A stretch of DNA of 59,173 nt, from the NCBI GenBank assembly GCA_031273045.1, contig JAISSQ010000115.1, positions 1-59,173 on the forward strand, given 5' to 3'. This document shows, piece after piece, positions 30,107 through 57,032 of the stretch. The first letter of the stretch is position 1. Each line of letters starts with the position of its first letter. Source of the DNA: Puniceicoccales bacterium (GTDB taxonomy: Bacteria > Verrucomicrobiota > Verrucomicrobiia > Opitutales > UBA953). The notes beneath the pieces are model-generated. The model made no database searches. It saw nothing but the letters and a program-made list of their open reading frames with translations, and was not told the origin of the DNA. A program made the translations under genes and the position numbers.

Positions 30107-30142
30107 TTCGCGACCGACGCACTCGCGCAATACTATTGCGTT
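30107..30142 (+). promoter_or_regulatory. Conserved phage promoter module TTCGCG-N18-TACTAT-N6-ATG (copy 1)
   Basis: TTCGCG at 30107-30112, TACTAT at 30131-30136, ATG at 30143. It overlaps the perfect palindrome CGCAATACTATTGCG at 30126-30140. Confidence 0.55.
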
Positions 30143-30757
30143 ATGAGCAAGAGAGTAGGCGGCTGGGCGGAGCGGTGGCGGACGTCACCGGTGACGGTGC
30201 TGCCGATAGTGTTTTCGCGGGAGCCGGTGGGGGCGTCTCTGCCGGCTTTCCTGAAACCGGTGTTGGCGCAGAAAAACGGGCAGCAGGCGTGGAGCGTGAC
30301 GGAGGGGCACGTCAACAACTGCTTTCCGAAGGTCGGCGGGGTGCGAATGGGTGAGCCGACAGGGAAGGTCAGCGATTGGGCTGTGCCTATCAGCGACGCT
30401 GGGCTGATTTATTTGCGGGCGGAATGGGGGAATGGCGGTCCGTTTCCGGGCGGGTTCGAGTATGACGTGATATACGCGCAGCCGGGGACGATTGAGGACA
30501 CGGAGACGCAGGGGCATATGTTGATTGGGCGGATTGCGCCGGTGCAGACGGGAGCGGGACAACAGCAGCGGTGGAAGGTGATTCCGTATAATGCGGCGAA
30601 CTGGCAGGTGATGGTGACGGGGCAGACGTGGGTGTGGGTGCCGAGGTCGCTGCCTATCTGGACGATGGCTGTGCAGACGGACGAGGCGGAGGCGGAGGCA
30701 GGGGCGATGCCGGGAGAATCGGATGCGGGGTTCCCGCCGCTGATGTCGGCGCAATAA
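30143..30757 (+). CDS. Hypothetical phage protein
   Basis: 204-aa ORF starting exactly at the conserved module. Composition is non-repetitive. Confidence 0.65.
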   Translation: MSKRVGGWAERWRTSPVTVLPIVFSREPVGASLPAFLKPVLAQKNGQQAWSVTEGHVNNCFPKVGGVRMGEPTGKVSDWAVPISDAGLIYLRAEWGNGGPFPGGFEYDVIYAQPGTIEDTETQGHMLIGRIAPVQTGAGQQQRWKVIPYNAANWQVMVTGQTWVWVPRSLPIWTMAVQTDEAEAEAGAMPGESDAGFPPLMSAQ

Positions 30758-30758
30758 T

Positions 30759-31364
30759 ATGGCGCGTTTGCGAAATCCGATGGCTCACAAAAACTACATT
30801 CACAAGGAGGACTTGCTGGCGCCGAACCAGCAACTGCGGTCGTTTTACGATGGCGGCTATGGTCGGCGGTTCACGATTGAGCGCGCGGACGTGCGGCCGC
30901 GCGACACGCCGGAGAAGGTGGGGCTGTATTTCGCGTGGCTGTTTTTTGAGCCGGCGTTGGTGTCGCGGGCGGTCAGCGACGGTCTGACGGTGACGGAGAA
31001 ATGGACGAATTTGACGACGGGGATGCACTACCGGATTTATGCGGAATACACGCCGCCGGTCGGGAACGACGGGAGCGGCGGAACGGCGGCAAGGGTGCTG
31101 TCGGTGGTCGAGGAGGATTGGGAGGCGACTGCGCCGGAGATGCCGTGGGACGGGCGTCCGGTCGGGAGCACGGGAGAGGGCGGCGGTTTTTACGCCTACT
31201 ATATTGAGCCAAGGAGCGCGGCGATGGCGTCGCCGGCGTATCCGATGGAGTATTGGTATTCGCTGTTTCCGTTGGTGAAGCAGGACGAGGCGGGGTTCCC
31301 GTATTGGTGGCTCCCCTACAATCCGGCGAATTACCAAGGCGAGTTGTTCAATCCGCCGTCGTAG
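30759..31364 (+). CDS. Hypothetical phage protein
   Basis: 201-aa ORF starting 1 nt after the preceding stop. It is rich in aromatic residues (YWYSLFPLV..FPYWWLPYNPANYQGELF) and looks structural. Confidence 0.65.
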   Translation: MARLRNPMAHKNYIHKEDLLAPNQQLRSFYDGGYGRRFTIERADVRPRDTPEKVGLYFAWLFFEPALVSRAVSDGLTVTEKWTNLTTGMHYRIYAEYTPPVGNDGSGGTAARVLSVVEEDWEATAPEMPWDGRPVGSTGEGGGFYAYYIEPRSAAMASPAYPMEYWYSLFPLVKQDEAGFPYWWLPYNPANYQGELFNPPS

Positions 31365-31968
31365 GAGCGGCGGCGGTGCTCGGCGGCGGCGGGAGTGCGC
31401 CGGAGAGGAATTTCGCAAGTGCGCAAATTAGTTGCTCGGTTGCGGAAGAGGCGCGGCCGGCGGCGGCGAGGGTTGTGAGGGCGGTGTCGAGCGCACGGGC
31501 GGGCGGCGCTTTGTGGACGGGAGCAGAGACGAGGCGGCGGCGGATTTCGGCGCGGTAGGCGGGCGGGACGGTGTCGAGAATGTAGTCGGCAAGGAGGAGG
31601 TCGGCGATGGGTGGCTCGACGTGAGAGAGGAGCGCGTGGAGGGTTTCGGGGGTCGGGCGCGTGATGGCGGCGAGGTAGCGGGAGACGGCTGATTCGCTGA
31701 TGCGGCGGCGGGTGTGGCGGGAGAACTCGGCGGCACCGCCAAAGTCGGTGATGTAGCGGGCGAAGGAAGCGGAGAAGAGGGTTTGGTTTCGGCGCGAGGT
31801 GACGCCAGCGCGGGCGGCGGCGGAATCGGCGCGGGGTTTGCGCTGGCGGCGGGAGACGACGCCGGTTGTGGGGGTGTGTCCGGTAAGCGCGGGCGTGAGG
31901 GCGATGCCGTCGGAGTTGATGTGACCGGCTTTCTTGTGCGGGCGTTTTTTGGCGGTTGCGGTGCTCAT
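31348..31968 (-). CDS. HTH (XRE-like) DNA-binding protein, candidate prophage repressor
   Basis: The internal start MSTATAKKRPHKK.. at 31968 overlaps the upstream stop (ATGA). A candidate HTH is AAEFSRHTRRRISESAVSRYLAAITRPTPETLHALL. The upstream part of track ORF 31348..32706 is P/R-rich out-of-frame junk. Confidence 0.6.
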   Translation of the reverse strand: MSTATAKKRPHKKAGHINSDGIALTPALTGHTPTTGVVSRRQRKPRADSAAARAGVTSRRNQTLFSASFARYITDFGGAAEFSRHTRRRISESAVSRYLAAITRPTPETLHALLSHVEPPIADLLLADYILDTVPPAYRAEIRRRLVSAPVHKAPPARALDTALTTLAAAGRASSATEQLICALAKFLSGALPPPPSTAAAPTTAD

Positions 31969-32446: not shown

Positions 32447-32746
32447 TCAGCGGGCGCGGGATTTGGGCGCACGGCGGGCGGTGGCGGCTGACTTGGCGGG
32501 AGCGGTGGAGAGGCGGACAGTGCGGGCGGATTTCGGCGTGGAAGGCGGGGACGCTGGGGCGGTGTTGCTCGCGGAGGCGGAGGCGGATGTGGCGGAGGCA
32601 TCGAACACGCTGCCGATGCCGATGTCGCGGCGAACGAGTTGGTTGAGGTAGGCGGAGAAACTGATTCCGCAGGAGGCGGCGCGGCGTTTGCCACGAACAA
32701 GAACATCGGGGTTGGGGAATGAAATCCCGTAAACGGTTTTTTTCAT
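32447..32746 (-). CDS. Ribbon-helix-helix (CopG/Arc-like) regulator
   Basis: The internal start MKKTVYGISFPNPDVLVRGKRRAASCGISFSAYLNQLVRRDI gives a beta-strand, helix A, G-x-S turn and helix B pattern. It is the first gene of the leftward operon. Confidence 0.65.
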   Translation of the reverse strand: MKKTVYGISFPNPDVLVRGKRRAASCGISFSAYLNQLVRRDIGIGSVFDASATSASASASNTAPASPPSTPKSARTVRLSTAPAKSAATARRAPKSRAR

Positions 32747-32861
32747 AGCGGACGGAAAGTGTGCGGGGCTGGCGGCGTTTTTCAAGTGTTGAAAAAGGTT
32801 GAAAACTTTTAGCGCATTCGCGCTTGACGGTTCGCGAAGAGTTAGCGAACTTTTAGCGCGT
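32747..32861. promoter_or_regulatory. Divergent switch region between leftward and rightward RHH genes
   Basis: A 115-bp, relatively AT-rich spacer with repeated boxes. CTTTTAGCGC occurs twice (near 32806 and 32850). GGTTCGCGAAGAG and GAGTTAGCGAAC are the same TTCGC(G/T)AA core used elsewhere in the phage. GTTGAAAA also occurs twice. Confidence 0.6.
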
Positions 32862-33053
32862 ATGATAAACCACGAAGAAATTATTCCGCGCCGGCGATGC
32901 ATCGGCGTGGCATGGGAGCCGCAGGTGCTCGAAGCGGGGCGCCGGAAGGCGGCGAGCGAACGGAGGTCGTTCTCGAACTACGTCAACCGGCTCGTTGATT
33001 TGGACACGACGACCACGAAGAGCGTGGAAGGAGGGAAGAAGGATGAAAACTGA
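32862..33053 (+). CDS. Ribbon-helix-helix regulator (Cro-like position)
   Basis: MINHEEIIPRRRCIGVAWEPQVLEAGRRKAASERRSFSNYVNRLVDLD is paralogous to the leftward RHH protein (shared G(K/R)R(R/K)AAS..SFS.Y(L/V)N.LV). ATG at 32862. Confidence 0.6.
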   Translation: MINHEEIIPRRRCIGVAWEPQVLEAGRRKAASERRSFSNYVNRLVDLDTTTTKSVEGGKKDEN

Positions 33054-33495: not shown

Positions 33496-33523
33496 CATTG
33501 CACGAATGAGAAGTTTTTATTTT

Positions 33524-34165
33524 ATGGACAACAAAACAGAGAGAGACGGGTTGCTTCCGTTGGAACTGCCAACAACGGAAGAAGTGGAGCGGAAATTGCA
33601 TTCGCACGAATACTCGCTCGCGCTCATCGAGCAGAGACGCCCGGATGTCATTGAGGGAGTGGCGCGGGCGTATGCCGGCGGCGCAAGCATGCGAAGCATA
33701 GCGCGAGCGTTCGGCGTCTCAATGAACACGATTTCCCAAATACTGGACAAGCGGACGGACGCCGTAGATGCACATAAAGACGACGTTCTCAAACACTTGC
33801 GGCGAGGAATTAGGGTGGCGGCGGAGACGCTCGCCGAAGACATCGAGAACGGCGACCTGCGCGGGAAGGACTTGGCGATCGCGATGGGCATCATGGTTGA
33901 CCAGATGGGCAAACTGTCCGGGACGAATGCGGAAATCAATCGGACGAAAGCAGAGACAGTGAACGACCTCGAAACAGTGCTACGGGCACTTCCGTCCGGT
34001 TCGTCAGTGCAAATCAATGTCGGGCAACCGGTTGTGAAGGGGGAAAAAAGCCGCCCAAAGGGCGGCGGCGGAGGCGCAGCGGCGAGTGAGACGGTCATTG
34101 ACATCACGCCGAAAAATGGGGCGGCAAGTGACAATAGGGCAATTGCGAATGCTGGCGCAACCTGA
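33524..34165 (+). CDS. HTH-domain protein (regulator or small terminase-like)
   Basis: An N-terminal HTH (GGASMRSIARAFGVSMNTISQILDKR) is followed by a helical region and a G-rich tail. The start is ambiguous (33461, 33506 or 33524). Confidence 0.5.
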   Translation: MDNKTERDGLLPLELPTTEEVERKLHSHEYSLALIEQRRPDVIEGVARAYAGGASMRSIARAFGVSMNTISQILDKRTDAVDAHKDDVLKHLRRGIRVAAETLAEDIENGDLRGKDLAIAMGIMVDQMGKLSGTNAEINRTKAETVNDLETVLRALPSGSSVQINVGQPVVKGEKSRPKGGGGGAAASETVIDITPKNGAASDNRAIANAGAT

Positions 34166-34321: not shown

Positions 34322-35017
34322 ATGAAAACACTGAAAAAACCATATGACCGCCGCACTTGGCGGCAAGTGAACCGCGCCGCAGACATCGGTGACGCTGTCG
34401 CGCAACTAAACGCCGCGAACACGCGCATCGCCTACGCGCTGCATTGCGTGGCGTGGGCGATGACGACGCAGGAATCTCTCGACGCCAAGCGCGAACTCGC
34501 CGCCGCCCGCGCCGCCTACGCCGCCGCCCGCGACCCGCTCCTGACCATTCCCTCGCACTGTCTCCTCTTCGGCGGTGCCTTCGCCGGCGCCATCGACGCC
34601 CGACAAAAAAACACCACCATCCGGCGCGCCAAACGCGCGCACAAAAGATGGTCACCCGGCGACATCCTCGAATTGCGCACGTGGAGCGCTCGCCCCTACC
34701 GCTCTCGGCAAACCATCATCGCCTACGCAATCCTCGACGACGTGTGCGAGGTTCGTCCGAAGCGAGACGCCATCTGGACACGTCCTCACCTCGGCGACCG
34801 CGTCCTGCTCGATTACCCGCACGGCGACGACTACTTCGCCGACGACGACATCTCCGCCTTCGCCGCCCGCGAAGGATTCGCCTCGCACACAGACCTGCTC
34901 GCCTACCTGCGCGATGCCTACGGCTACACGCCCGAAGTGCCGGAGCCGCTGCTCATGCTCATTTCGTGGAACATCCCTCAACTCCCTCAACTCCCTCAAC
35001 AACCCAAAACCACATAA
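34322..35017 (+). CDS. ASCH/PUA-like domain protein
   Basis: The C-terminal half (QKNTTIRRAKRAHKRWSPGDILELRTWSARPYRSRQTIIAYAILDDVCEV...FAAREGFASHTDLLAYLRDAYG) resembles the ASCH domains common in phage early regions. Confidence 0.5.
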   Translation: MKTLKKPYDRRTWRQVNRAADIGDAVAQLNAANTRIAYALHCVAWAMTTQESLDAKRELAAARAAYAAARDPLLTIPSHCLLFGGAFAGAIDARQKNTTIRRAKRAHKRWSPGDILELRTWSARPYRSRQTIIAYAILDDVCEVRPKRDAIWTRPHLGDRVLLDYPHGDDYFADDDISAFAAREGFASHTDLLAYLRDAYGYTPEVPEPLLMLISWNIPQLPQLPQQPKTT

Positions 35018-35020
35018 AAA

Positions 35021-35944
35021 ATGCCTGCTCGATACATCCGTGAAGGAATACTCACAAGCGAGCGCGTGAACGCGCTCACGGCCGAGGAGGAGGTCTTCTT
35101 CCGCCGGCTGCTCAACGTCGTGGACGACTATGGTCGCTTCCATGCGGACGCCCGGCTGTTGCGCTCGGCCTGCTACCCGCTGCGCGAGGAGACCACATCC
35201 GCCCAATGCCGTGCGTGGCTCGACGCGCTCATCCGCACCGACCTCGTGCGCGCCTACGTTGCCGACGAGAAGTCATACCTCGAAGTGCGGCGATTCGGAT
35301 GCCAGATGCGTTCGCGCAGCAAGTTCCCCGCCCCGCCGCCCGACGCACCGGACGTCCCCGAGAACCCGCCGCCTCCGCAATCGCGCACGAGTATCGCACA
35401 CTGCGAAACTCCGCCGCCGCCGCCAGCGCCGGAACAAACTCCCGCGCAACCTCCTGCGCCGCAATGGTTACTGCCCGCGAACACCTGCGAGCGACCCGTA
35501 ACCACCTGCGAGCAACCGCTTACTTATAACGATAACGATATACGTATACCCCCCTTACCCCCCAAGGGGGGCACCCGCGCCGCTGCGCTCTCTGACGCAT
35601 TCGCCACGTTCTGGGCGGCCTATCCGCCGACCGGACGCCGCCGGTCCTCGCAGAGCAAGTGCCTCACCCTTTGGCGACGCCTACGCCTCGACGCCCCCGG
35701 CGCCGCCGACGCCGTCCTCGCCGACCTGCGCGCCCGCACTGCCGGTGCCGACTGGACGAAATCCGGCGGCCAATACGTCCCAGCCGCCCATCGCTACCTC
35801 CGCGACAAAATGTTCGCCGACGCCATCCTCTCCTCGCCGCACTCCGCCACCGCGCAAAAAAATTGCGCACCGCGCAACTCCGCCCTCGACGCCGGCACCA
35901 ACCTCGCCGACATCCTCGAAGCCGAAGGCCTCACCGGCGACTGA
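35021..35944 (+). CDS. Putative replication initiation / replisome-organizer protein
   Basis: N-terminal YIREGILTSERVNALTAEEEVFFRRLLNVVDDYGRFHADARLLRSACYPL and C-terminal FATFWAAYPPTGRRRSSQSKCLTLWRRL resemble phage replication organizers. It lies directly upstream of the helicase. Confidence 0.5.
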   Translation: MPARYIREGILTSERVNALTAEEEVFFRRLLNVVDDYGRFHADARLLRSACYPLREETTSAQCRAWLDALIRTDLVRAYVADEKSYLEVRRFGCQMRSRSKFPAPPPDAPDVPENPPPPQSRTSIAHCETPPPPPAPEQTPAQPPAPQWLLPANTCERPVTTCEQPLTYNDNDIRIPPLPPKGGTRAAALSDAFATFWAAYPPTGRRRSSQSKCLTLWRRLRLDAPGAADAVLADLRARTAGADWTKSGGQYVPAAHRYLRDKMFADAILSSPHSATAQKNCAPRNSALDAGTNLADILEAEGLTGD

Positions 35945-36003
35945 CCCTCGCCACGCCAGCCCAATCCAGCCAACCTCACCTCCGCCAACCTCACCACCTC
36001 GCC

Positions 36004-37860: not shown

Positions 37861-37907
37861 TTTTCTTCTTGCACGACTGCGGAAAATTCCGCAAACACGC
37901 AACCGTC

Positions 37908-38916: not shown

Positions 38917-39053
38917 CGACGCGCACTCAATTCCGTCGTGGCGACATACGACGGTTGTTGGCCTCGCGCCGGCGGACACCTCCGCCGGCGCGTTTTGCTT
39001 CCCTGCGGAAATTTTCGCAGACCTGAAAAACCGCCGCTACACTCCGCGCCGAC

Positions 39054-40127
39054 ATGAGCACCACAGCACATCCCTCTCCCGCCGCGCAGCCGCCGGCACC
39101 GGCCGCCGCAATCCCGCCCGCGCCCGCCGCGCCCGCCAAGGACATCACCTCCGTCCCCGCCCTCTCCCGCGCCTTCCTCGAAGCCGCCGCCGACCTCGAC
39201 CCCGCCGCCTCCGGCGAAAGTGCTGTGCCGCCCGTTCACGGGCAGGAAGCCGCGCCCGCAGCCACCACTACCGCCACCACCGAGCCACCCACCACCGGCG
39301 AGAGTGCTGTGCCGCCCGTTCACGGGCGGGATGCTGACCCACTCGCCGACCTCGCTCTCCCCTCCGACTCGACCCCCGCCGCCGGAACCACCTCCACCGA
39401 GCCACCCGCCACCACCGAGCCGCCCACCACCGCCGCAAGTGCTGTGCCGCCCGTTCACGGGCGGGATGCCGCGCCCGCCGCCGCCGCCGCCGCCGACCTC
39501 GCCCCCGAAATCGCCGCCGCGGACTACAAGACCCTCGCCCAGGTGCAGGCCTCCGCCGAGCAATGGCTCGACCGCATCGCCGACGTGCTCGCCGGCGATG
39601 GCGACCCCATCAAGGCCGCCGACGGCACCGACATCCCGGACGAGAAACTCAAGGCGTGGCGCGACCAACTCCGCGACACCCTGCGGCGCCAAATCCCCGC
39701 CCGCCTCGGGCAACTCTCCGCAGCCGCCGCCGCCGAACGCGCCCGCACTGCCGCCGCCGAGCACGCCGCAAAGACATTCCCCGCCTACGCCGACGCCAAA
39801 TCCGCCGAGCGCAAGTGGGCGGATGCCTTCCTCGCCGCGCCCGAAAACGCCGCCCTCGCCGCGCATCCGCGCGGCGCCACCCTCGCGCTGCTCATCCGCC
39901 TCGGTCAGAAGGCCTACGCCGCCCAAGCCGCCGCCCAAGCCAGTTCCAGCGCCGGCGGTCACGCCGCCCAAGCCGCCGCCAATCCCAACCTCCCAACGTC
40001 CACCCCCGCCGCCGGCGCCGCAGCCACCGCCGCCGCCAAGCCCGCCAGCCGCACAGCAGCGAAAATGCGCGCCGCCGGAATCACCGACACAAACGCCCTC
40101 GCGACCTACTTCGCCGAGGTTGCGTAG
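39054..40127 (+). CDS. Capsid scaffolding-like protein (three 27-nt hairpin repeats in the N-terminal linker)
   Basis: Ala/Gln/Glu-rich predicted coiled-coil protein immediately upstream of the major capsid gene. 357 aa. Confidence 0.6.
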   Translation: MSTTAHPSPAAQPPAPAAAIPPAPAAPAKDITSVPALSRAFLEAAADLDPAASGESAVPPVHGQEAAPAATTTATTEPPTTGESAVPPVHGRDADPLADLALPSDSTPAAGTTSTEPPATTEPPTTAASAVPPVHGRDAAPAAAAAADLAPEIAAADYKTLAQVQASAEQWLDRIADVLAGDGDPIKAADGTDIPDEKLKAWRDQLRDTLRRQIPARLGQLSAAAAAERARTAAAEHAAKTFPAYADAKSAERKWADAFLAAPENAALAAHPRGATLALLIRLGQKAYAAQAAAQASSSAGGHAAQAAANPNLPTSTPAAGAAATAAAKPASRTAAKMRAAGITDTNALATYFAEVA

Positions 40128-40193
40128 AAGCGGTATTTTCCGCGCTCTCCAATTTCCCCGACAACACACACCAACACCAACACCAATACACCA

Positions 40194-41189: not shown

Positions 41190-41323
41190 ATTTCCCCGCC
41201 ATAGCAGCACGACAGAGAAAGAACGGGATATTCACGGCGCCATGCCGTGACGGCGCGTCCGGTCGCGGGGATGCCGGCGCGCCGATTTCCCGCTCGCTCA
41301 CCCAACCACAGAATTTCGCACCT

Positions 41324-41605
41324 ATGCAATTTTCTTTCACGGATGCAGAAGTCGCCGCCCTCAACCGCAAAATCCGACTCGGCGTCGAGGTCAAGCGACA
41401 CCTCCACCGCTCTCGGCAGCAGCGCATCGCGCGCGCCTCGGAGCGCCTCGGCGGTCATCGCGTGGACGGACTCGGCCAACTGCGCGCCCGCATAGACCTC
41501 GACACATTCCTGCGCTGGCAAATCGCCGAACCCGGCATCTGGGAAGACCCCGCCAGCGTCAAGGCCTTCCTCCGCGACAACGACGACATGCGGGTCAAAG
41601 GATGA
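41324..41605 (+). CDS. Hypothetical small phage protein
   Basis: 93-aa ORF between the capsid and membrane-protein genes. It stops immediately before the CTGACCA heptamer array. Confidence 0.5.
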   Translation: MQFSFTDAEVAALNRKIRLGVEVKRHLHRSRQQRIARASERLGGHRVDGLGQLRARIDLDTFLRWQIAEPGIWEDPASVKAFLRDNDDMRVKG

Positions 41606-41610
41606 ATTCA

Positions 41611-41644
41611 CTGACCACTGACCACCGACCACTGACCACTGACA
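41611..41644 (+). repeat. CTGACCA heptamer array (5 units)
   Basis: CTGACCA CTGACCA CCGACCA CTGACCA CTGACA. The stretch 41606-41640 is the exact reverse complement of 27246-27280 inside int. Confidence 0.9.
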
Positions 41645-42607
41645 ATGCTCCGCCACGCTGAAAACAACTGGATTACTTTCGCGTTCGCCGGCGCCGCCGG
41701 CGGAACCGTCTCCCAATTTCTCAAGAGCGGATTGGAGTGGGTGGTGCTCATCGGAAGCGCCATCTCTGCGCTCGCCGGCGCTGTTCTCGCCGTCGCCAAA
41801 ATCTACCGCAAGTTTCGCGCGTGGCGCATCGCCGCGCGTCTCGCCACCTCCACCGGTGGCACAATTTCGACAGGAGCAGAAGCCGAGAAGTTTTTACCGA
41901 GGTTTTCTTCTCGTGGCATTCCGGCGGAAAGCAAGTGGTCCGCCCCTGTCGTCCTTTTCATCTGCGCAATACTATCCTCCGGTTGCGCAGGGTGCTCCTA
42001 CCTGCACGACGTCCCACCCACTAAAGGCGGCACCTACACCGTCGAGACGTGGGGGATTGGCAGTGCACAGGAACAAGGGCAAAGGGATAAGGGCAAAGGG
42101 CAAAGGGCAGAAAGCGCACCTCTAAAGCGGGAGACCTTCACCCAAGGTGACAACGCCACCGGTCGCGCACGCTTCACGCGCGCTCCCGATGGCGCGGTAA
42201 CCCTCTCCCTCTCCGCGAACGCGCCCAACGCCGTCACCATTCCGCCCGTCCCCGACTACACCAAATACATCGCCCTCGTCGTCTCGCTGATGCTCGCTGC
42301 GCTCGGCGCCGCGCTCTGCGGATACGGCTACGCCGGCGTCGGCTCGCGTCTCTTCCTTGCCGGCGCCGGCGGTGCCGTCCTCTCCCTCACAGTCACCGAC
42401 TACGGCTGGCTCTATGCAGCAGCCGCTGTCGCCATCGGCCTCTACGTAGCATGGGAGAAGTTGCGCGCCTACGCCGCCGGCGTGAGCGAGAGCAGCGAGC
42501 CGGACACGTGGCTCGACCGCCTCGTCGGCGCCGCGAACGGCGCCTCCGCCTCCACCGCCTCCACCGCCGCCCCCACCGCCTCCGCGCCACTGACCACCGA
42601 AACATAA
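41645..42607 (+). CDS. Multi-TM membrane protein with internal lipobox (possible holin/spanin-like lysis function)
   Basis: TM segments include WITFAFAGAAGG and WVVLIGSAISALAGAVLAVA. An internal VVLFICAILSSGCAGC lipobox-like string and C-terminal TM helices (IALVVSLMLAALGAALCGYGYAG..) are present. It carries the in-frame 51-nt GGGCAAA element. Confidence 0.55.
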   Translation: MLRHAENNWITFAFAGAAGGTVSQFLKSGLEWVVLIGSAISALAGAVLAVAKIYRKFRAWRIAARLATSTGGTISTGAEAEKFLPRFSSRGIPAESKWSAPVVLFICAILSSGCAGCSYLHDVPPTKGGTYTVETWGIGSAQEQGQRDKGKGQRAESAPLKRETFTQGDNATGRARFTRAPDGAVTLSLSANAPNAVTIPPVPDYTKYIALVVSLMLAALGAALCGYGYAGVGSRLFLAGAGGAVLSLTVTDYGWLYAAAAVAIGLYVAWEKLRAYAAGVSESSEPDTWLDRLVGAANGASASTASTAAPTASAPLTTET

Positions 42608-42705
42608 TTTGCCGCCGCTGCCGGGGAATGCTCGCGAGTTGCATGTGGTCATGTCTGCGAGAACCGGCGCGGCGGCTCCTATTTCCAGCACCAACCTCGC
42701 CTCCC

Positions 42706-49029: not shown

Positions 49030-49126
49030 GGGATGAAATGCGTTCCAAGTGCTGTGCGCCCATTCGCGAGTGCTGTGCCGCCCATTCATGGGCGGAAGGC
49101 GCCGCCCATGGAGCGCCGACTTGCGT

Positions 49127-49162
49127 TTCGCGAACTGCGCATTCACGCAATACTATCGCCAC
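49127..49162 (+). promoter_or_regulatory. Conserved phage promoter module TTCGCG-N18-TACTAT-N6-ATG (copy 2)
   Basis: TTCGCG at 49127-49132, TACTAT at 49151-49156, ATG at 49163. Confidence 0.55.
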
Positions 49163-49906
49163 ATGAGCACGCGCTTCGTGAAGAAACCCGCGACAGTCGC
49201 CGGCGCGACAGGACCGCAAGGCCCGCAAGGACCGCAAGGCCCGCAAGGACCCCAAGGCGAAACCGGACCGCAAGGACCGCAAGGACCCCAAGGACCCCAA
49301 GGCGAAACCGGACCGCAAGGACCCCAAGGACCCCAAGGCGAAACCGGACCGCAAGGACCCCAAGGCGAACCGGGCACCGGTTCCGGCAGCGGCGCCGGCC
49401 TCCTCTACAAATCCATCTTCCTCACCGAGGAATGGACTGACGCGAATCAATACGCTCTAACCGGTCAGTGGGCGGCCGAATGGGAGGCGGAGGACTGGGT
49501 GCCGGAGATCGTCTGGGATCTCGATGGCGTCATGCTGAACTCGCGTGCCTACGCGCTACGCATTGACGGTCCGTCGCCAAAGTGGGGTTCGTTTCTCATA
49601 GATAATTACGGCGGAAATGGCCGAAACATGAATCTGCCGGCCCATGCGTCCACGAATCGTGTGATGGACCGAACGTACGACATCAACGCCCCCCAAGGTT
49701 CGGTCTCTGCGAACGACCAGACCAACTACTATCGGTCGCTGCAAGACAAGTGGTGCGACATTCTGTGCCCATCCCTCGGCAAATTGCTGCGCATCCACAT
49801 CGTTCGCGACTATTGGTCGCCGCTGTCATATTGCGTCCCGTCCAGCAACGTGACACGCCCGCACACGGCAGCACGCCTCGAATTCTTCAACGTGGAGGTC
49901 CGCTAA
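49163..49906 (+). CDS. Collagen-like (G-X-Y) repeat fibre protein
   Basis: [40 protein letters not shown]...[12 protein letters not shown] gives about 21 uninterrupted GXY triplets (49199-49390), followed by a ~170-aa globular C-terminus. Confidence 0.8.
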
Positions 49907-49907
49907 T

Positions 49908-52088
49908 ATGAACCAAACCACCGCCGGCGCGCTCACGCCCGCCACAATCCCTGCCTACTTCGCCTCCGTCGAGGGCGGCTCAACGGCGTGGCAATCACGC
50001 ACACGCGAAAACATTCGCACGCGCTATTGCGTCTGGCCCGGGCAATCTCCCGATGGACGCAAGCGCGGTTCGCGCACCGGGAACGCAAAGCCGTGGGAAG
50101 GCGCGAGCGACCAGCGCACATTCATCGTGGACGGTCTCATCGCCTCGGATGCCGCGATGCTCACCGTCGCCCTCGCCCGCGCGAACGTGGACGCCGTGCC
50201 CGTCGCTGGCGACGACATCGAGCGCGCCTCGCTCGTGTCGCGCTTCACCCGCTGGCTCTTGCAGCGCGGGATTCCGCACTTCTTTACCGAGGCCAAAATC
50301 CTCGCCAACACCGTCCTCACCCACGGCGTCGGCGTGATGAGCATCGCGTGGCGCCGCGAGGTCATCCACCAGCCAATCCGCCTCGCTCGTAGTGAGATTT
50401 TGAGAATGGGAAATAGTTCGGAGGAACAAGGGCAAAAGGATGAGGGCAAAGGGCAAAGGGCAGAAAGCGCACCGGACCTTATCCCTTCCACGTGGAGCAC
50501 CGACCCCTCCGGCGACTTTCTATCCGCCATAGACGACCCAGCCCGCGAAGCCGAAGCGCGCGCGCTGCTTTCGCTCGCATTCCCCGATGCGACGACCGCC
50601 GAACTCACCGCCGCTGTCCGCGACCTCCGCCCACGCGATGGCGTCGCCGACCCAACCGCCACGCTCTACCGCGCAGAGGAGGTCGCCAACCAACCGACCG
50701 TCCGCGCCCTCACAGTCGGCACCGACATCTTCTTCCCGCCGGAGACGGACGACCTCGAACAAGCACCGGCTGTCTTCGAGGTGCAATGGCTCACGCGCGA
50801 AGAACTCGAAGCGCGGCGCGACGACCAGAATTGGGACGCCGAGTGGACCGAGCGCGTCATCGCCACCGCGCTCAAGACGCCCGACCTCCGCGACGACGAT
50901 GCCGCGCGGCTCCTCGCCTCGCCCGGGAGCGAGACGCTCAAGGCGCGCGTCATCTGCGCTTACTACCGCTCACGCGACGAGCACACCGGGCGCGCGCAGA
51001 CGCGCTACTGCGTCTTTGCAGCCGACGCGCCCGACGCCGGCTGCGCGCTCGACGAGGTCTTCGCCTACACGCACAGTCGCTACCCCTACGTCGTCTTTAC
51101 GCGCGACCGCGAGACGCGGCGCATCTTGGAAAGCCGCGGGATGGCGGAAATCGGTCAATCGGCGCAGGATGAGATCAAACTCCAGCGCGACGGCCGCGCC
51201 GACCACACCGAACTCGCTCACCTCCCGCCTCTCTACCATCCGCTCGACGGCGCGCCGGCGGCGTGGGGACCGATGGCTTTTGTGCCGCGCCGCCGCGGCG
51301 ACCAAACCCCCTATGAATACGTCAAGGTGCCGCCGCCGCCGGCAGGCAGCATAGAGGTCGAGCAGACACTGCTCGCCAATCTCGACAAGCGGTTCGGAAA
51401 CGCCGGCGCCGATGGCGAGGGAGGCCGCGCGTGGCTCAAACAGGAGTTGGTCAACGAGTGGCTGCGCAGCATGGCGCAGGTCGCCGCTCACGCATTCGCC
51501 TTGTGGAATGCCTACGGCCCGGAGGACATCTTCTTCCGCGTCGTGGGCGACGAGTCGCGCTCGCCGGCGCGCCTTGTGCGCGGTAGCAAGCAGGAGCGCT
51601 ACGACTTCTTCCTCTCGTTCACCGTTGACCTCCTCGACCCGAAGTCCGCCGAGACACGACTCAATAAGCTTGGCGAGGCGCTCGCCCGCTACGACCGCCA
51701 AGGTCTCGTGAATTGGGGCGCATTCCTGCGCATGCTCGCGAACACCTACGACCCGGCGACCGCCGACAAACTCATCATGTCGCGCGACGACGCCGCCGAG
51801 CAGGAATTCGCGCGAGCCAAGCAGGACCTGACCCAAATCTGGGCAGGCATGGATGTGGATTTCCCCGACATCGGACGCGACCCGGACACCGCCGCCCAAG
51901 TCCTGCAAGAGTATCTCGCCGGCAGCGAGCAAATCCCGGCCAACGACGTGCAGACACGATTCGCGAACGACGAGGCGTTCCGCGCCCGCCTCGAGAAATA
52001 CCAGAAGCAAATCCGCTTCCAGCAACAGCAGCACGAGAACGCGCAGACAGGCCGCCTCGGCGCCGCCGCCGGAAACATGTCCGAGTGA
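49908..52088 (+). CDS. Putative portal protein
   Basis: 726 aa. The N-terminal RYCVWPGQSPDGRKR...KPWEGASDQRTFIVDGLI pattern is recalled from podovirus-type portals, and the size fits. It carries the in-frame 51-nt GGGCAAA element. Confidence 0.6.
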   Translation: MNQTTAGALTPATIPAYFASVEGGSTAWQSRTRENIRTRYCVWPGQSPDGRKRGSRTGNAKPWEGASDQRTFIVDGLIASDAAMLTVALARANVDAVPVAGDDIERASLVSRFTRWLLQRGIPHFFTEAKILANTVLTHGVGVMSIAWRREVIHQPIRLARSEILRMGNSSEEQGQKDEGKGQRAESAPDLIPSTWSTDPSGDFLSAIDDPAREAEARALLSLAFPDATTAELTAAVRDLRPRDGVADPTATLYRAEEVANQPTVRALTVGTDIFFPPETDDLEQAPAVFEVQWLTREELEARRDDQNWDAEWTERVIATALKTPDLRDDDAARLLASPGSETLKARVICAYYRSRDEHTGRAQTRYCVFAADAPDAGCALDEVFAYTHSRYPYVVFTRDRETRRILESRGMAEIGQSAQDEIKLQRDGRADHTELAHLPPLYHPLDGAPAAWGPMAFVPRRRGDQTPYEYVKVPPPPAGSIEVEQTLLANLDKRFGNAGADGEGGRAWLKQELVNEWLRSMAQVAAHAFALWNAYGPEDIFFRVVGDESRSPARLVRGSKQERYDFFLSFTVDLLDPKSAETRLNKLGEALARYDRQGLVNWGAFLRMLANTYDPATADKLIMSRDDAAEQEFARAKQDLTQIWAGMDVDFPDIGRDPDTAAQVLQEYLAGSEQIPANDVQTRFANDEAFRARLEKYQKQIRFQQQQHENAQTGRLGAAAGNMSE

Positions 52089-52178
52089 AGGAAGAAGGAT
52101 AAGGGATAAGGGTAGTTTCCGGCGGCAAAGCCGTGCATTCCACCCTTATCCCTTTGCTCTTTGCCCTTTGCCTTCTCC
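52087..52178. repeat. Heptamer-armed stem-loop element (same family as 20299-20464)
   Basis: The arm GAAGGAAGAAGGATAAGGGATAAGGGTAG is followed by the loop TTTCCGGCGGCAAAGCCGTGCATTC and the arm CACCCTTATCCCTTTGCTCTTTGCCCTTTGCC. The loop is about 75% identical to the loop at 20407-20430. Confidence 0.8.
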
Positions 52179-52238
52179 GCTAACAGTTCGCTAACTTTTC
52201 GCTACCACTTTGCTAAAAGTTCGCTAACACTTCGCGCG
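52179..52238 (+). promoter_or_regulatory. Array of TTCGCTAAC-type boxes at 11-bp phasing
   Basis: Boxes start at 52187 (TTCGCTAAC), 52198 (TTCGCTACC), 52209 (TTTGCTAAA), 52220 (TTCGCTAAC) and 52231 (TTCGCGCGT), with CGCTAAC at 52179. The array ends 2 nt before the ATG at 52241. Confidence 0.6.
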
Positions 52239-52240
52239 TC

Positions 52241-52709: not shown

Positions 52710-52810
52710 ATGGCGCGCCAAGTGCTGTGCCGCCCGCTCATGAAGCGCCGACTTTCAATTCGGCTCGGCGGCGCTGCGGCGCAGCCGCCTCGCTAACACT
52801 TCGCGAACTT

Positions 52811-52846
52811 TTCGCGAAGTGCGCATTCACGCAATACTATCGCCAC
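52811..52846 (+). promoter_or_regulatory. Conserved phage promoter module TTCGCG-N18-TACTAT-N6-ATG (copy 3)
   Basis: TTCGCG at 52811-52816 (preceded by a second TTCGCGAAC at about 52800), TACTAT at 52835-52840, ATG at 52847. Confidence 0.55.
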
Positions 52847-53101
52847 ATGACCGCCTCCGTCTCCACCTCCGCCTCCATCATCTACGAACCGCCGCAAGGC
52901 GTCCGCTGGTGCGTCATCCAGAATCGCTCGACCGACACGGACATCTACCTCGACATCACCGGCGCGACCGCCGCCACCGTCTTCGGCGGCCTCCGCCTCG
53001 AGCCGTCAGAGATCCTCTCGCTCGAAGGCACCAACGCCACTGCCTCCGTCTCCGCCATCACCGAATCAGGCATCGCCACCGTCGTCATCCAGTATGGTTG
53101 A
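52847..53101 (+). CDS. Small hypothetical virion-module protein
   Basis: 84 aa from the in-frame ATG at 52847 (MTASVSTSASIIYEPPQGVRWCVIQNRSTDTDIYLDITG..). It looks beta-rich. Confidence 0.55.
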   Translation: MTASVSTSASIIYEPPQGVRWCVIQNRSTDTDIYLDITGATAATVFGGLRLEPSEILSLEGTNATASVSAITESGIATVVIQYG

Positions 53102-53119: not shown

Positions 53120-53887
53120 ATGCGCCCCTGCACCTACCAATCCTGCTACGCCGCCTTCCTCGCTGCCATCCGCATGGCGCCAGCGGACGCCACACCGCAA
53201 ATCGCCGAGTCCTTCCGCGCCTCTTTCAACGACGCCTTCCAGAACCTCTGGACGCGCGCACAGTGGCCGTTCGCCGTGCGCACCGCCAACCTCACCATCC
53301 AGACGGACTCCACCAAAATCACGAACCAGTCGCGCCTCGCCGCCGGCGTGTTCTGCGCCGACATCGTCCGCCTGTTCGAGCGAGATCCGCGCACGTTCGA
53401 GAATCAGACACCCCTGAAATTCTCCGAGCAATCCGACGGCTACTCCATCTACCTCGCCGACGCGGAACGCTGCCGCGAGCACGGCGTGTGGGCAGTGTGC
53501 CGGATGTGGACGCCGGAGTGGGACGGCGAGCAGTGGCAGACGGGCACGTCCTACGTCGCCGGCGACACCGTCCAATACGCCGGCGAATTTTTTTCCAAGA
53601 TCTATGGCGCCGGACTGTCGTTCGGTGCCGGCAGCAGCGGTCTCGCGCTCGGGGATGTCGAGTATCCGCCGGACAACTCCGACACGAGCGAATGGCTCTG
53701 GACTGCGGTGCCCCACGACTGGCGCCGCGCGCTCGTCGCCCGCGCACTCGCCGACTACCTCACCTACTCGCAAACGGACGACCGCCTCGCCGCCGTCGCC
53801 GCCAATCGTGCCACCTCCCTTGAAGAAGACCTCCTCGAAGACCTCGTGAAGCACCGCGCCCAAAACCCGCTCTACGCCCTGCTTTAA
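53120..53887 (+). CDS. Hypothetical virion protein with CBM5/12-like W..Y..GD.V.Y.G motif
   Basis: 255 aa. WQTGTSYVAGDTVQYAGEFFSKIY resembles the carbohydrate-binding CBM5/12 signature. It sits in the structural module. Confidence 0.55.
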   Translation: MRPCTYQSCYAAFLAAIRMAPADATPQIAESFRASFNDAFQNLWTRAQWPFAVRTANLTIQTDSTKITNQSRLAAGVFCADIVRLFERDPRTFENQTPLKFSEQSDGYSIYLADAERCREHGVWAVCRMWTPEWDGEQWQTGTSYVAGDTVQYAGEFFSKIYGAGLSFGAGSSGLALGDVEYPPDNSDTSEWLWTAVPHDWRRALVARALADYLTYSQTDDRLAAVAANRATSLEEDLLEDLVKHRAQNPLYALL

Positions 53888-53906: not shown

Positions 53907-53942
53907 TTCGCTAACTCCGCACGCGCGCAATACTATCGCCCA
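53907..53942 (+). promoter_or_regulatory. Conserved phage promoter module TTCGCT-N18-TACTAT-N6-ATG (copy 4)
   Basis: TTCGCT at 53907-53912, TACTAT at 53931-53936, ATG at 53943. Confidence 0.5.
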
Positions 53943-55990
53943 ATGCCAGCCGCCACGCTCCCTCCGCTCACGCCGCCCGCCTCATTCCTCACGCCCATCG
54001 GCACTGACCTTGGGCAGCCGGTCGAACTCGACACACTCCCCGGGAACAAGCAGCGCGTCGTGCGACGCTACCTCGTGCCCGACACGCTGCTCCACCGCGC
54101 CGGAACGGCGCCGGAACCGCCCGCCGCCGCCGGCGGTGTCGCCCAGTCGTGGGACAATCCGCAGACAATCGCTGACCATCCGCTCATTGAGAAGGTGCTG
54201 CGGCCTTACGGCACGCGCGACCACGAGTTCCCTGTCTGCAAATTGGTCGAGCAACACGTCCGCCCCATCGCGGGCAGCGCATCCAAAAACTACGGCGGGA
54301 AGGCAATCCTCGAATGGGTGTTCGAGCAGACACCCTATGCGCGTGCAGCGCGCACCTCAACGTCTGGCGGAATCACCCGGACACACGGAGAAATGGTCTA
54401 TTGCGAAACGGAGGCGCCGAGCACATCGGACATCGCCGGCTACGTCGGCTCAATGACCGAGACCAGCCACGACCAAGGGCGCGTCATCTATGCTTACGAG
54501 ACGCTGTCCGGCGAGGGACTGCTCGGCAAAGGCGTGTCCTATCGCGTCGCGCAGAGCGCCACCGCCGGACAGCAGGGCGCGCCGCAGACGGACCACGCGA
54601 CCAAGCGCTGGACGTTCCGCATCCTCACCTCATCGCCCGAAGTGCCGACCACCTACGAGCCGCCAGCGGGAGCGGTGCTACTCGACGACGAGTCGAGCGT
54701 GCACGAAATCAATGGCAAGTATGTGCATACGCTCGTTTTCGAGAAATCCGACGGGCAAATCCGGGAATCCTCGTGGGAGTGGCGCGGCGGCGAGGGAAAG
54801 AAGCAGTGCAGCGAGACGGTCGAGACGACCAACGACAACGAGACAGACGAGGATCGCGACGCCAAGTATCTCGGCGGCTGGCAGCGCGACCGCACCGATA
54901 GCGGGTTTCGCTACACCGGGACAAAGATGGAGACAGACAACAGCCGGTTCAGCCGGTCGTCGCGCAAGGGCGAGTTCCTCGGCTCGTGGATTCGCCGCCG
55001 CCGCATCGCGTTTCCAGCGCCGACAGCGCCGGAAGGCGATACGCTGCCGGAAAACGTCTCCGCCGACCGGCCCTCGACATGGCCGGCGCCAAGCAACGAC
55101 GACCTCGACGCAGAGTTCCCGGAGGGCTGGGAGTTGGAGTGGACGCCGACGGGGTGGGAAGGCACCGGCGACGAGTTCGTCGCAGACCCGGATGAATTGC
55201 AGGACGATAAGTCGCTCCGCATCACGGGCGATGTCGCAGAGGAGACGCGCACGCGGCTCTTTCAGGTCAACACCTCGACGCCGCCGGCTGAGACAGAGCC
55301 GGGAGTCGTCGTCGCGGACACCATCGCGAAATGGAAGGAGCACCTGCCCGTCGCGAGCAACCTCACCACACACCCGCTCATCACGCTCGCCGCCGTCGAG
55401 ATTGCGTGGACGCGCAAGGGCTGGGTGCGCATCGCGGCAACGTGGCGACACTACCGCGCCAACAAGGTCTGGCCGGACTACCTCCGCTGGCAGTGTCCGG
55501 GCTGGGCACAGATGGTCACCGGCAACGACAACACGCTCTACATCTCCGCGCAAGTGACCTCAACGTTAGCGGGCATTGGCATCGCGAGCACTATCTGCTG
55601 CAGAATGGTGCGCAAGAGAAGCGGCACGGCCGACCGTGGGCACTCATCCGGCCCGTCTGCATCATGTATCACTACGAGGACGCGAAAGGCGAAATCCACT
55701 ACCGAGTCGAATCGCGCGAAGGCGTGATGGGCGGCGGCTTCGGCGCGATGGGCGACACGTTCAATGGCGACGAGGTCACCGAGGGCTACTACGACATCCG
55801 CTCCTATCCGCACACCTACCCGGGCAGCGGCTCCGTTCTCGCCGCGCGCCCCGTTGACACCGTCGGACACGACCTCCTCACCGGAAAGGATATCCAGGTC
55901 GCCGAATGGTTCGAGTGCAACGAGGACATCGCTGTCCTCGCCGGCTACCTCCCGGGTCAAAACAACCTGCCCGAAGCAGTGCCAACGTAA
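53943..55990 (+). CDS. Large virion (tail-like) protein requiring a -1 frame change near 55.55 kb
   Basis: The frame from 53943 looks protein-like to about 55560 (..YLRWQCPGWAQMVTGNDNTLYISAQ), then degrades and stops at 55727. The -1 frame (track ORF 55331..55990) becomes protein-like from about 55560 (..GHWHREHYLLQNGAQEKRHGRPWALIRPVCIMYHYEDAKGEIHYRVES..) with no convincing start of its own. Confidence 0.5.
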
Positions 55991-56024
55991 CCCTTTGCCC
56001 TTTTCGCAAAGGGTTCGCGAACTT

Positions 56025-56060
56025 TTCGCGAACTGCGCATCCGCGCAATACTATCGCCCA
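56025..56060 (+). promoter_or_regulatory. Conserved phage promoter module TTCGCG-N18-TACTAT-N6-ATG (copy 5)
   Basis: TTCGCG at 56025-56030 (second TTCGCGAAC at about 56014), TACTAT at 56049-56054, ATG at 56061. Confidence 0.55.
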
Positions 56061-57032
56061 ATGGCACAATATCAGCGCGACTTCGACAAAGGGTCTTCCC
56101 TCTCTGACGCCCAGTGGGGAATGAACGGCAGCGACCCGTGGTATATGCAAAAGCCCCGCGACGAGCGACAGCCTCGCGCGTCGAGCAAATACACCGAACT
56201 CGGCATCCTCCTACGCACAAACCCAGCCGCCGTCGGCCGCGGCCGACAAGGACGCCAAGACCTCCGCGCCTACGCGCAAGCCGTCCGCGACGGCCGCGCC
56301 AGCACACCATGGGACGAAGAAGTCAGTAGTCGAGAACGCGCCGCCACCGCCCAGCGTGACCACGAGACCGGACAGCAGAAAGCGCGCTTCGAGCACGAGA
56401 CCGGCCGCGCCAAGCAGGAACACGAGTGGGCCGCCGCCCGCGCCTCCGCTGCCCACGACCGAGCGAAGGAATACTACGACTGGACGCAGACAGGCGAAGC
56501 GCGCCGGCGCGGCATCACCGACCCAGCCAAACAGACCCAATTCTTCGGCGCAAAGGGAGCCATCGCCGACACCAAGGACGCCGCCGAAGCCGCCGCAGCC
56601 ACATCGCGCGCCTCCATCCTCAACGACCAAGCGTGGACATCCGGCACCCAGACCACCGAAGCCAAACGCCGCCTCGCCACCACCGCCGCCGACGCCAAGC
56701 AGGGCTTCGCGACCCAAGACCAGAAAGACGCCGCCGACTTCTTCACCGCCCACGGCCGATTCCCAACGCCCCAAGAGAAAGAGGCCCTGCGCCTCCAACG
56801 CCGCGCACCCTCCATCACCACCATCCCCGGCCCCGACGGCAACCCCGTCTCCGTCTTCACCCCGGGCGCCGAAGGTGCTCATTTGCTCCCACCAGCCAAA
56901 CCCACCCAGCAAGAAGTCACCACACCCACCGGCGAGAAAATCACCATCATCGCCGGTCGCGCCTACCGCACCAACAAAGCCGGGAAACTCGAACCCATCG
57001 CCACCCCCAACCCCCTCGGCGGCATCCAGTAG
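56061..57032 (+). CDS. Hypothetical charged/helical virion protein (last gene before attR)
   Basis: 323 aa from the in-frame ATG at 56061 (MAQYQRDFDKGSS..). It is rich in Q/E/K/A/R and may be an internal or tail-associated protein. Confidence 0.55.
   Translation: MAQYQRDFDKGSSLSDAQWGMNGSDPWYMQKPRDERQPRASSKYTELGILLRTNPAAVGRGRQGRQDLRAYAQAVRDGRASTPWDEEVSSRERAATAQRDHETGQQKARFEHETGRAKQEHEWAAARASAAHDRAKEYYDWTQTGEARRRGITDPAKQTQFFGAKGAIADTKDAAEAAAATSRASILNDQAWTSGTQTTEAKRRLATTAADAKQGFATQDQKDAADFFTAHGRFPTPQEKEALRLQRRAPSITTIPGPDGNPVSVFTPGAEGAHLLPPAKPTQQEVTTPTGEKITIIAGRAYRTNKAGKLEPIATPNPLGGIQ

Follow-up and report, generated by a model that had tools for sequence, protein, structure and literature searches.

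To our knowledge, almost nothing is known about the transcription and translation signals of Verrucomicrobiota and their phages. How such a phage might start its late genes is a question raised by a 59,173-nt contig of a Puniceicoccales bacterium (JAISSQ010000115.1; the window, by which we mean this whole stretch), in which five genes of an integrated prophage open directly behind one rigid sequence cassette, TTCGCK-N18-TACTAT-N6-ATG. An initial annotation had read this cassette as a phage-specific promoter giving rise to leaderless mRNAs. On the evidence set out below, we think it fairly probable that all five cassettes serve the virion-gene operons of the prophage as regulated promoters, with transcription starting at the ATG; we are more confident that they are promoters, and less confident about which protein regulates them.

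A rigid cassette ahead of five prophage genes

TTCGCK-N18-TACTAT occurred exactly five times in the window, at 30107, 49127, 52811, 53907 and 56025 (cassettes 1 to 5; Table 1) and always on the + strand, compared with an expectation of 0.00 from 100 dinucleotide-preserving shuffles. When the pattern was extended by N6-ATG and up to 2 mismatches were allowed, the identical five sites were returned and no others. The geometry proposed for five ATGs in the initial annotation was thus borne out by the counts. The cassette comprises 39 bases, from an upstream box through the ATG, and its copies agree pairwise at 29-38 of 39 positions. The 40 nt flanking the cassettes on each side show random identity, except for upstream boxes held in common, which makes the box and the ATG the limits of the unit. 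TTCGC, CGCA (positions 12-15) and CGCAATACTAT (positions 20-30; 11 bases) are invariant, and the variable positions cluster at 8-11, 16-19 and 31-36. All 18-nt spacers terminate in CGCGCAA or CACGCAA, and the 6-nt gaps between TACTAT and ATG (TGCGTT, CGCCAC, CGCCAC, CGCCCA and CGCCCA for cassettes 1 to 5) contain no Shine-Dalgarno sequence; the start codon is ATG in 5/5 cassettes. Also present, as the initial annotation had described together with these spacer ends and gaps, were a doubling of TTCGCGAA 11 nt apart at 52800/52811 and 56014/56025, and the palindrome CGCAATA-C-TATTGCG (CGCAATACTATTGCG) at 30126-30140, which is perfect in copy 1 only.

A leaderless gene is expected to have a -10 hexamer that ends 6-7 nt before its start codon. 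A hexamer of the TANNNT type (TACTAT) was found in 5/5 cassettes and ends exactly 6 nt before the ATG in 5/5, a distance that would place the transcription start at the A of the ATG. The pyrimidine-purine step at -1/+1 falls on this A in three copies and 1 nt upstream in two. All five cassettes lie in 55-137-nt gaps, 3' of the stop codon of a same-strand gene and ahead of one or two genes. The cassette ATG is the earliest possible start codon of the open reading frame (ORF) at 30143 and at 53943, and in frame plots of G+C content at third codon positions (GC3) the coding signal begins at the cassette ATG. The other cassette genes have in-frame GTG or ATG codons upstream (49049/49088, 52727 and 55764), with GC3 rising at the ATG.

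This arrangement has counterparts in bacteria. A TANNNT hexamer ~12 bp ahead of the start codon is the signature of leaderless genes (PMC3160421), the same geometry is a common expression mode in Deinococcus-Thermus (PMC12340547), and ~10% of the transcription starts mapped by Cappable-seq in Akkermansia muciniphila were leaderless (PMC4782308). Across 377 kb of Opitutae and other verrucomicrobial loci, TANNNT-Nk-ATG was most frequent at k = 6, with 14 cases vs ~5 at other offsets, and one case was conserved between the two nearest species. The proposal of a leaderless phage promoter therefore gained computational support from the TANNNT-N6-ATG geometry, the lack of a Shine-Dalgarno sequence, the same geometry in a relative phage (see below) and the leaderless starts mapped in a verrucomicrobium; its -35 hexamer had to be reinterpreted.

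We propose that the host's sigma-70-type RNA polymerase would recognise the TACTAT -10 hexamer and begin transcription at the A of the start codon, or 1 nt earlier in two copies. The resulting mRNAs would have neither a leader nor a Shine-Dalgarno sequence, and would be translated by the leaderless route, in which the AUG at the 5' end is bound by a ribosome already loaded with initiator tRNA. The spacer words that never vary, CGCA and CGCAA, would make extra contacts, for which this mechanism offers no explanation.

The rigid distance to the start codon and the sense-strand position of all copies would also be expected if the conserved block worked at the RNA level, promoting translation initiation or binding a regulator on polycistronic mRNAs, comparable to a translational operator of the RegA type or to the start-associated sequences of cluster K mycobacteriophages. 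We consider this decidedly improbable. Folding of the cassette RNA was at the level of shuffled sequences (z +0.3 to -0.5), which argues against an RNA element, and the block is not complementary to the anti-Shine-Dalgarno sequence. The palindromic box is also found, in either orientation, in arrays that have no relation to start codons, pointing to recognition of double-stranded DNA, and the TANNNT identity and N6 spacing are predictions of a promoter. Two readings were ruled out: conserved RNA structure, on the same folding results and because the CGCAATA/TATTGCG pairing is perfect in a single copy, and coding sequence, because no start codon lies between the upstream in-frame stop and the ATG at 30143 and 53943, and the DNA upstream of 56061 codes in another frame.

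Repeated sequence can also arise by copying. The 49127 and 52811 copies differ at 1/39 positions, and the phage is a mosaic, with a terminase block that differs in GC skew and has a 45-nt repeat at either side. On these grounds one might suspect that the cassette has no part in regulation and is a selfish or recently duplicated copy, or marks a boundary of recombination. We judge this extremely improbable, as every copy has the same orientation and is in register with the ATG of a real ORF, variation is limited to the three clusters of positions given above, and the most divergent copy, which lies in the compositionally foreign block, retains all key elements.

Palindromic boxes in phased arrays

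The initial annotation had equated the -35 hexamer with a palindromic box. The palindrome was confirmed, and the -35 assignment needed modification. TTCGCG or TTCGCT matches TTGACA at 3/6 positions, at 18-nt spacing; box arrays occur without TACTAT; and the corresponding box of the relative phage lies 14 nt from its -10 hexamer, vs 18 in the window phage. The host tRNA-Lys promoter, contained in the attachment (att) repeat of the prophage, has the canonical form TTGACC-16-TGC-TACCTT. The box itself, TTCGCKAA, is an 8-bp palindrome, perfect in the form TTCGCGAA. Its TT[CA]GC[GT]AA family has 15 sites in the window, 10/15 of them in phage intergenic DNA (7% of the window), where the TTCGCKAA box is ~27-fold enriched. 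Box-to-box distances were 11 nt (nine times), 22 (six), 33 (three) and 44 (two), and arrays occur at four places: 52789/52800/52811 (cassette 3), 56003/56014/56025 (cassette 5), 52187-52240 and 32809-32858. A box overlaps the weak -35 at 5/5 cassettes, with additional in-phase boxes at cassettes 3 and 5. Because the palindromes form phased arrays, some of them lacking TACTAT, and match a -35 hexamer poorly, we read the box as probably a site at which a phage regulator acts, as operator or for activation, and which overlaps a weak -35. The initial annotation had offered an operator bound by a dimeric regulator as a fallback to the promoter; given the phased arrays and the Arc-like genes described next, it is probably true of the box part, in addition to the promoter and not instead of it.

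Ribbon-helix-helix dimers bind short palindromes spaced about one helical turn apart. Two divergent small genes flank one of the arrays (Table 1), and their products are 42% identical over the aligned N-terminal parts. An AlphaFold2 model of one paralogue had a mean pLDDT of 71.5, with helices at ~90 and the N-terminal strand not modelled. Its top Foldseek matches were nearly all ribbon-helix-helix proteins (Arc, CopG, PutA, FitA, and VapB- and MazE-type antitoxins), at E values of at least 1 and probabilities of at most 0.92, which is not significant for such a small domain. PDB sequence searches with the two small regulators and with the products of 33506-34165, 34322-35017 and 26173-26757 returned nothing informative. 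From its position, the array between the two genes is a candidate autoregulatory operator. In the mechanism that we propose, the box at the -35 position would be the promoter-proximal member of the TTCGCKAA family and would be bound by a phage-encoded dimeric regulator, for which the two Arc-like proteins encoded beside the array are the best candidates. Such a regulator would tie the expression of all the operons to the choice between lysis and lysogeny, whether it represses them in the lysogen or activates them once the prophage is induced.

Could the cassette be a protein-binding site only, a dispersed repressor site without promoter activity, similar to the "stoperators" of mycobacteriophage L5 and close to ATG codons incidentally? 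Both TTCGCGAA and GCGCAATA-N-TATTGCGC are palindromes, a cassette fragment with the perfect palindrome stands alone in the terminase gene, boxes are also present in the immunity region, and every copy is oriented with transcription, all as this account would have it. However, the exact 6 nt to the ATG (5/5), the TANNNT at that position and the recurrence of the same geometry with another sequence in a relative phage are left unexplained, as is the translation of read-through RNA for genes that lack a Shine-Dalgarno sequence and lie behind structured hairpins. We therefore hold a binding site without promoter activity to be rather unlikely.

The regulated-promoter reading was extended by a relaxed search. 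TTCGC-N19-TANNNT gave 7 matches vs 0.74 expected, all in the phage and on the + strand, with 0 in host DNA. The two additional matches, at 39014 and 40110, have spacers unrelated to the cassette spacer (Table 1), and the capsid-gene leader predicted for the second is A/C-rich and without a Shine-Dalgarno sequence. Since these promoters combine unrelated spacers with the same box, spacing and TANNNT, the three shared elements behave as the core on which function depends. The idea that one cassette defines the late regulon is incomplete, the genes at 39054 and 40194 having other TTCGC-N19-TANNNT promoters. Palindromes of the type GCGGAAA(A/T)TT(C/T)CGC were also noted at 37861-37907, 38990-39020 and 40128-40150, upstream of the genes at 37908, 39054 and 40194, and may represent either a variant box or another family of operators.

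The invariant CGCA-N4-CGCAATACTAT block, with conservation well past the -10 hexamer, would be accounted for if the whole cassette were read by a specificity factor peculiar to the phage, which could be a sigma-appropriation factor or a sigma-like protein that has escaped recognition, and not by unaided holoenzyme with a box-binding regulator. The cassette of the relative phage is different yet equally long, as if cassette and factor co-evolve, and the protein encoded at 33506-34165 contains a helix-turn-helix that faintly resembles sigma region 4 and late activators. We nevertheless find such a factor unlikely. No sigma factor, RNA polymerase or known appropriator was detected in any prophage ORF with Pfam or PHROGs; the domain order of the 33506-34165 protein is wrong for an extracytoplasmic function (ECF) sigma, and the protein could be a small terminase subunit; and the two promoters with unrelated spacers suggest that box and -10 hexamer are sufficient. 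By inspection, the spacings and consensus words also misfit ECF-sigma, sigma-54, sigma-28 and Bacteroidetes-type promoters. A phage RNA polymerase domain was absent from every prophage ORF, the 2192-aa protein included, which speaks against a promoter class of T7-like or virion polymerases.

Table 1. Coordinates of cassettes, boxes, candidate regulators and related features in the window
Feature	Position	Strand	Description
attL	25896..25983	.	88-bp direct repeat with 5' half of tRNA-Lys(CTT) and its promoter
Partial cassette	29027..29062	-	CGCA..CGCGCAATACTATTGCGC; no box, no ATG; antisense inside terminase gene
Cassette 1	30107..30145	+	TTCGCGAC box, CGCA/CGCAA spacer elements, TACTAT, 6 nt, ATG of 204-aa gene; most divergent copy
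Ribbon-helix-helix regulator candidate, paralogue 2	32447..32746	-	Divergent small gene
Box array	32809..32858	.	TTAGCG/TTCGCG boxes, four of them 11-nt-phased; separates the divergent pair of Arc-like genes; no TACTAT
Ribbon-helix-helix regulator candidate, paralogue 1	32862..33053	+	
Skeleton with other spacer	39014..39043	+	TTCGCA-N18-TACACT, ends 10 nt ahead of ATG 39054 (scaffold-like gene); predicted leader 2-4 nt
Skeleton with other spacer	40110..40139	+	TTCGCC-N18-TATTTT, 54 nt ahead of major capsid gene ATG 40194; predicted leader ~48 nt
Partial cassette	41958..41975	+	CATCTGCGCAATACTAT; no box, no ATG at N6; in 1.26-kb gap between capsid gene and giant gene
Structured region	49030..49126	+	Giant-gene stop to cassette 2; z = -2.4
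Cassette 2	49127..49165	+	5' of collagen-like tail-fibre gene (49163-49906) and portal gene (49908-52088)
Box array	52187..52240	+	Five 11-nt-phased TTCGCTAA-type boxes, ends at ATG 52241; no TACTAT
Cassette 3	52811..52849	+	5' of 84-aa gene (52847-53101) and 255-aa gene (53120-53887); two further in-phase boxes upstream, 52789 and 52800
Cassette 4	53907..53945	+	TTCGCTAA box; 5' of gene with start at 53943
Hairpin	55991..56013	+	CCCTTTGC-N7-GCAAAGGG, between upstream stop codon and cassette 5; z = -4.8
Cassette 5	56025..56063	+	5' of 323-aa gene (56061-57032); two further in-phase boxes upstream, 56003 and 56014
attR	57322..57409	.	Second copy of 88-bp repeat; every cassette lies between the two att copies

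Related phages and comparable systems

We compared the prophage with its closest relative, a phage from JGI metagenome 3300042606 (loci L103 and L009) whose large terminase (TerL) and major capsid protein (MCP) are 54% and 57% identical. The relative has a cassette of its own, TTYGCGG-N..-G(T)TTGGGG-TAnGAT-N6-8-ATG, in three copies (L103:619, 12307 and 13141). One of these lies upstream of the homologue (33% identity) of window gene 53120-53887, the only cassette gene with a homologue in that phage. Also present in the relative are TATCTT-N7-ATG, TGCTATTCT-N6-ATG and, on L009, TGCTATAAT-N5-ATG. A TANNNT hexamer 5-8 nt ahead of the ATG was found for 5/11 L103 genes vs 1 of ~60 genes in four more distant relatives (L011, L106, L108 and L110), which have no cassette and carry tightly packed genes with Shine-Dalgarno sequences or A/C-rich leaders. 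Judged from these loci, the -10/ATG geometry is conserved in the phage lineage while its sequence differs, as function predicts. The 594-aa protein of the 53943 gene had no relative among 5.8 billion proteins, and its upstream region is therefore not comparable with orthologues.

Exact-pattern searches of public collections placed the cassette nowhere else. TTCGC-N6-CGCA-N4-CGCAATACTAT had 0 matches in 185,579 species genomes and one chance match in IMG/VR, in a coding region of an unrelated low-GC contig. CGCA-N4-CGCAATACTAT-N6-ATG had 8 single matches in JGI metagenomes, all boxless, in unrelated contexts and at chance level. We hold it to be unlikely, if conceivable, that the cassette and its counterpart in the relative are private promoter classes, with a factor specific to each phage redirecting the RNA polymerase of the verrucomicrobial host to them. 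This factor could be an Arc-like ribbon-helix-helix activator at -35 or an unrecognised sigma-like or appropriation factor.

Several points weigh against our preferred reading of the cassettes as regulated leaderless promoters. The leaderless start is a prediction from sequence. TTCGCG is a weak -35 (3/6), the 18-nt spacer is among the longest that are usual and there is no TGn extended -10, so that unaided activity could be low. With five copies only, some of them 38/39 identical, conservation may partly reflect recent copying and not selection. In the frame of the ATG, the cassette is free of stop codons, the coding reading being excluded on the other grounds given above. The 14-nt box distance in the relative misfits a -35 element of fixed position, and sits uneasily with a single geometry for a shared activator. 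As for the regulator, the ribbon-helix-helix assignment is weak (Foldseek E values all at least 1, pLDDT 71.5, a strand missing from the model), Pfam and PDB sequence searches with the small regulators gave no match, and the link between an Arc-like protein and the boxes is one of adjacency only.

Leaderless genes of Actinobacteria, Deinococcus-Thermus and Akkermansia muciniphila likewise have TANNNT 6-7 nt before the AUG, no Shine-Dalgarno sequence and a start at the A (PMC3160421, PMC12340547, PMC4782308). Only the -10 hexamer is common to the genes in those genomes, whereas here a 36-nt upstream block is near-identical at five places and a palindromic box replaces the -35. Among phages, most middle and late mRNAs of Thermus phage phiYS40 are leaderless and come from a promoter class of their own, as summarised in an article that cites Sevostyanova et al. 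2007 (PMC3594737); with this precedent, as that article describes it, the novelty initially claimed for a leaderless late regulon in phages of PVC-type hosts was too strong. phiYS40 is a lytic myovirus from a host phylum in which leaderless genes are very common, whereas the cassettes belong to a temperate podovirus-like prophage of Verrucomicrobiota. The phiYS40 promoters reportedly have no -35 and no box array.

Promoter sets with a shared regulator site at or near -35 include those of lambda CII (TTGC-N6-TTGC), Mu C, P2 Ogr and the T4 MotA box. As in these systems, several promoters of one phage have a weak -35 overlapped by a common repeat, and TTCGC-N6-TTCGC is phased by one turn like the CII sites. 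Unlike in these systems, there are only candidates for the activator (the ribbon-helix-helix paralogues and 33506-34165), the repeats are 8-bp palindromes in arrays of up to five, and the promoters are predicted to be leaderless. P22 Arc and Mnt, CopG and the omega repressor bind short (pseudo)palindromic subsites about one helical turn apart as cooperative dimers, with the regulator gene beside the operator. The prophage resembles them in having two Arc-like paralogues beside a box array, and 8-bp palindromes with a dominant spacing of 11 nt and its multiples. Arc and Mnt each serve one promoter region, whereas the boxes occur at six or more places across the late region and the fold is predicted weakly.

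The stoperators of L5 and Bxb1 are asymmetric 13-mers with no fixed distance to a start codon and no -10 hexamer, and the cluster K start-associated sequences include a Shine-Dalgarno sequence. With both, the cassette has in common a short motif that recurs in the intergenic gaps of a temperate phage, oriented with transcription and near gene starts. It differs from the L5 stoperators by its palindromic box, fixed 36 nt to the ATG and -10 hexamer; the point in common is the occurrence of related boxes in the immunity region. We conclude that leaderless genes marked by a -10 hexamer, a mostly leaderless phage and promoter sets with a regulator site at -35 are already known. New are the phylum of the host, the rigidity of the 39-nt cassette and the fact that it occurs together with Arc-like genes and with palindromic boxes in 11-bp phase.

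The prophage setting and wider implications

The prophage (25896-57409; 31.4 kb) is integrated at tRNA-Lys and delimited by an 88-bp direct repeat, and the cassette genes were correctly labelled as phage genes in the initial annotation. The label of a host from the Planctomycetes-Verrucomicrobia-Chlamydiae group was also right: LeuB of the host is 74% identical to that of Opitutae bacterium BS10, and the host is a member of Opitutae (Verrucomicrobiota). The att repeat consists of the 5' half of tRNA-Lys and 50 nt of promoter, not the usual 3' end, and the phage therefore provides the promoter and 5' half of the functional tRNA copy beside the integrase gene. Other products of the prophage are a large terminase, a replication initiator, a DnaB-like helicase, an SU10-type major capsid protein (best match among cultured phages, 33% identity only), a 2192-aa protein with a Zeta-toxin domain and a collagen-like tail-fibre protein; the portal gene (49908-52088) was assigned by synteny with relatives. 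The same capsid gene is also present in Logan run SRR14710912. On the host side, an ORF of >6,700 codons at 3-20159 (- strand; GC3 0.86) continues past the window end.

Stable hairpins lie upstream of cassette 2, cassette 5 and the 52187 box array. The hairpin before cassette 5 looks like a terminator or insulator, and the order of hairpin, then cassette, is as expected for a terminator followed by a promoter. Between 52089 and 52186, a heptamer repeat pairs with its complement to give a long hairpin. Of the two partial cassettes, the antisense one (29027-29062) contains the perfect palindrome GCGCAATA-N-TATTGCGC and falls within a 32-aa lineage-specific terminase insertion that is missing from the closest terminase homologue.

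Composition varies along the prophage. A block with the terminase and two further genes (28172-31364) is bracketed by a 45-nt direct repeat at 28099-28145 and 31405-31452, of the form AGGAA(T)TTCGCAAnTGCGCAA-N10-CGGTTGCGRAA. Its coding-strand GC skew is +0.29 to +0.33, similar to the relative phage at +0.28, vs -0.10 to -0.23 for all other + strand phage genes. From its composition, this block, in which the most divergent cassette lies, has the look of a module acquired by exchange or mosaicism. The skew flips sign sharply at ~34000, from +0.3 to -0.2, beside the replication genes (34322-37860). Within 53943-55990, the GC3 plot of the 594-aa ORF changes reading frame near 55560, and the second frame extends to the TAA at 55988-55990, just ahead of cassette 5. 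By this plot, either two genes overlap here or the frame shifts, be it by programming or through a sequencing error, and the annotated C-terminus of the product looks out of frame.

The 2192-aa protein (42451-49029) has a Zeta-toxin-like domain and a weak LPD14 match, and aligns over 1,295 positions, at 38% identity, with a 2391-aa protein of the relative (L103:653-7828; weak LPD38 match); it is probably a polyvalent internal or ejected virion protein. The 100 codons at 42151-42450, over which its ORF is open, include no start codon. Between the capsid gene and this giant gene, a 1.26-kb gap (41190-42450) has no convincing coding signal and contains a hairpin (41885-41912) and heptamer repeats.

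Other repeats were found in the prophage and its surroundings. A hairpin-containing element, AGTGCTGTGCCGCCC(G/A)TTCA(C/T)GGGCGG, has nine copies, on the + strand only (38238, 39219, 39303, 39438, 43903, 45307, 49048, 49069 and 52721). Six lie in three ORFs in constant frame and encode SAVPP(V/M)(H/N)G(R/Q). The other three are intergenic, just upstream of cassettes 2 and 3, two of them behind the giant gene and in frame past its TAA. This element could be a DNA or RNA signal, or a peptide motif common to head-internal proteins. Tandem heptamers, (GAAGGAT/AAGGGAT/AAGGGCA)n and (CAGTGRY)n, occur 3' of stop codons in both prophage (30074-30103, 42067-42110, 49006-49035, 50420-50463, 52086-52115 and 57047-57115) and host DNA, where those at 22938-23027 and 23436-23519 flank the gene for a 23S-rRNA-IVS protein in inverted orientation. 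The relative phage has its own intergenic heptamers on L103 and L009, (AATTACG)n and (CCACTAA)n, together with a 9-mer, (GGGACGAAT)n.

If confirmed, the 39-nt cassettes would be the first defined phage promoters for Verrucomicrobiota, and would show that the association of leaderless translation with late phage genes is not confined to the Thermus phages. They are compact, apparently regulated and free of a Shine-Dalgarno sequence, with the box, spacer words, -10 hexamer and N6 as targets for mutation, and would serve directly as parts for genetic tools in Opitutae. The box arrays and two Arc-like genes offer a testable model of how one small regulator could hold many dispersed late promoters of a temperate phage. 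Were the cassettes instead private promoter classes, each phage would carry an orthogonal, switchable, leaderless expression system that co-evolves with it.

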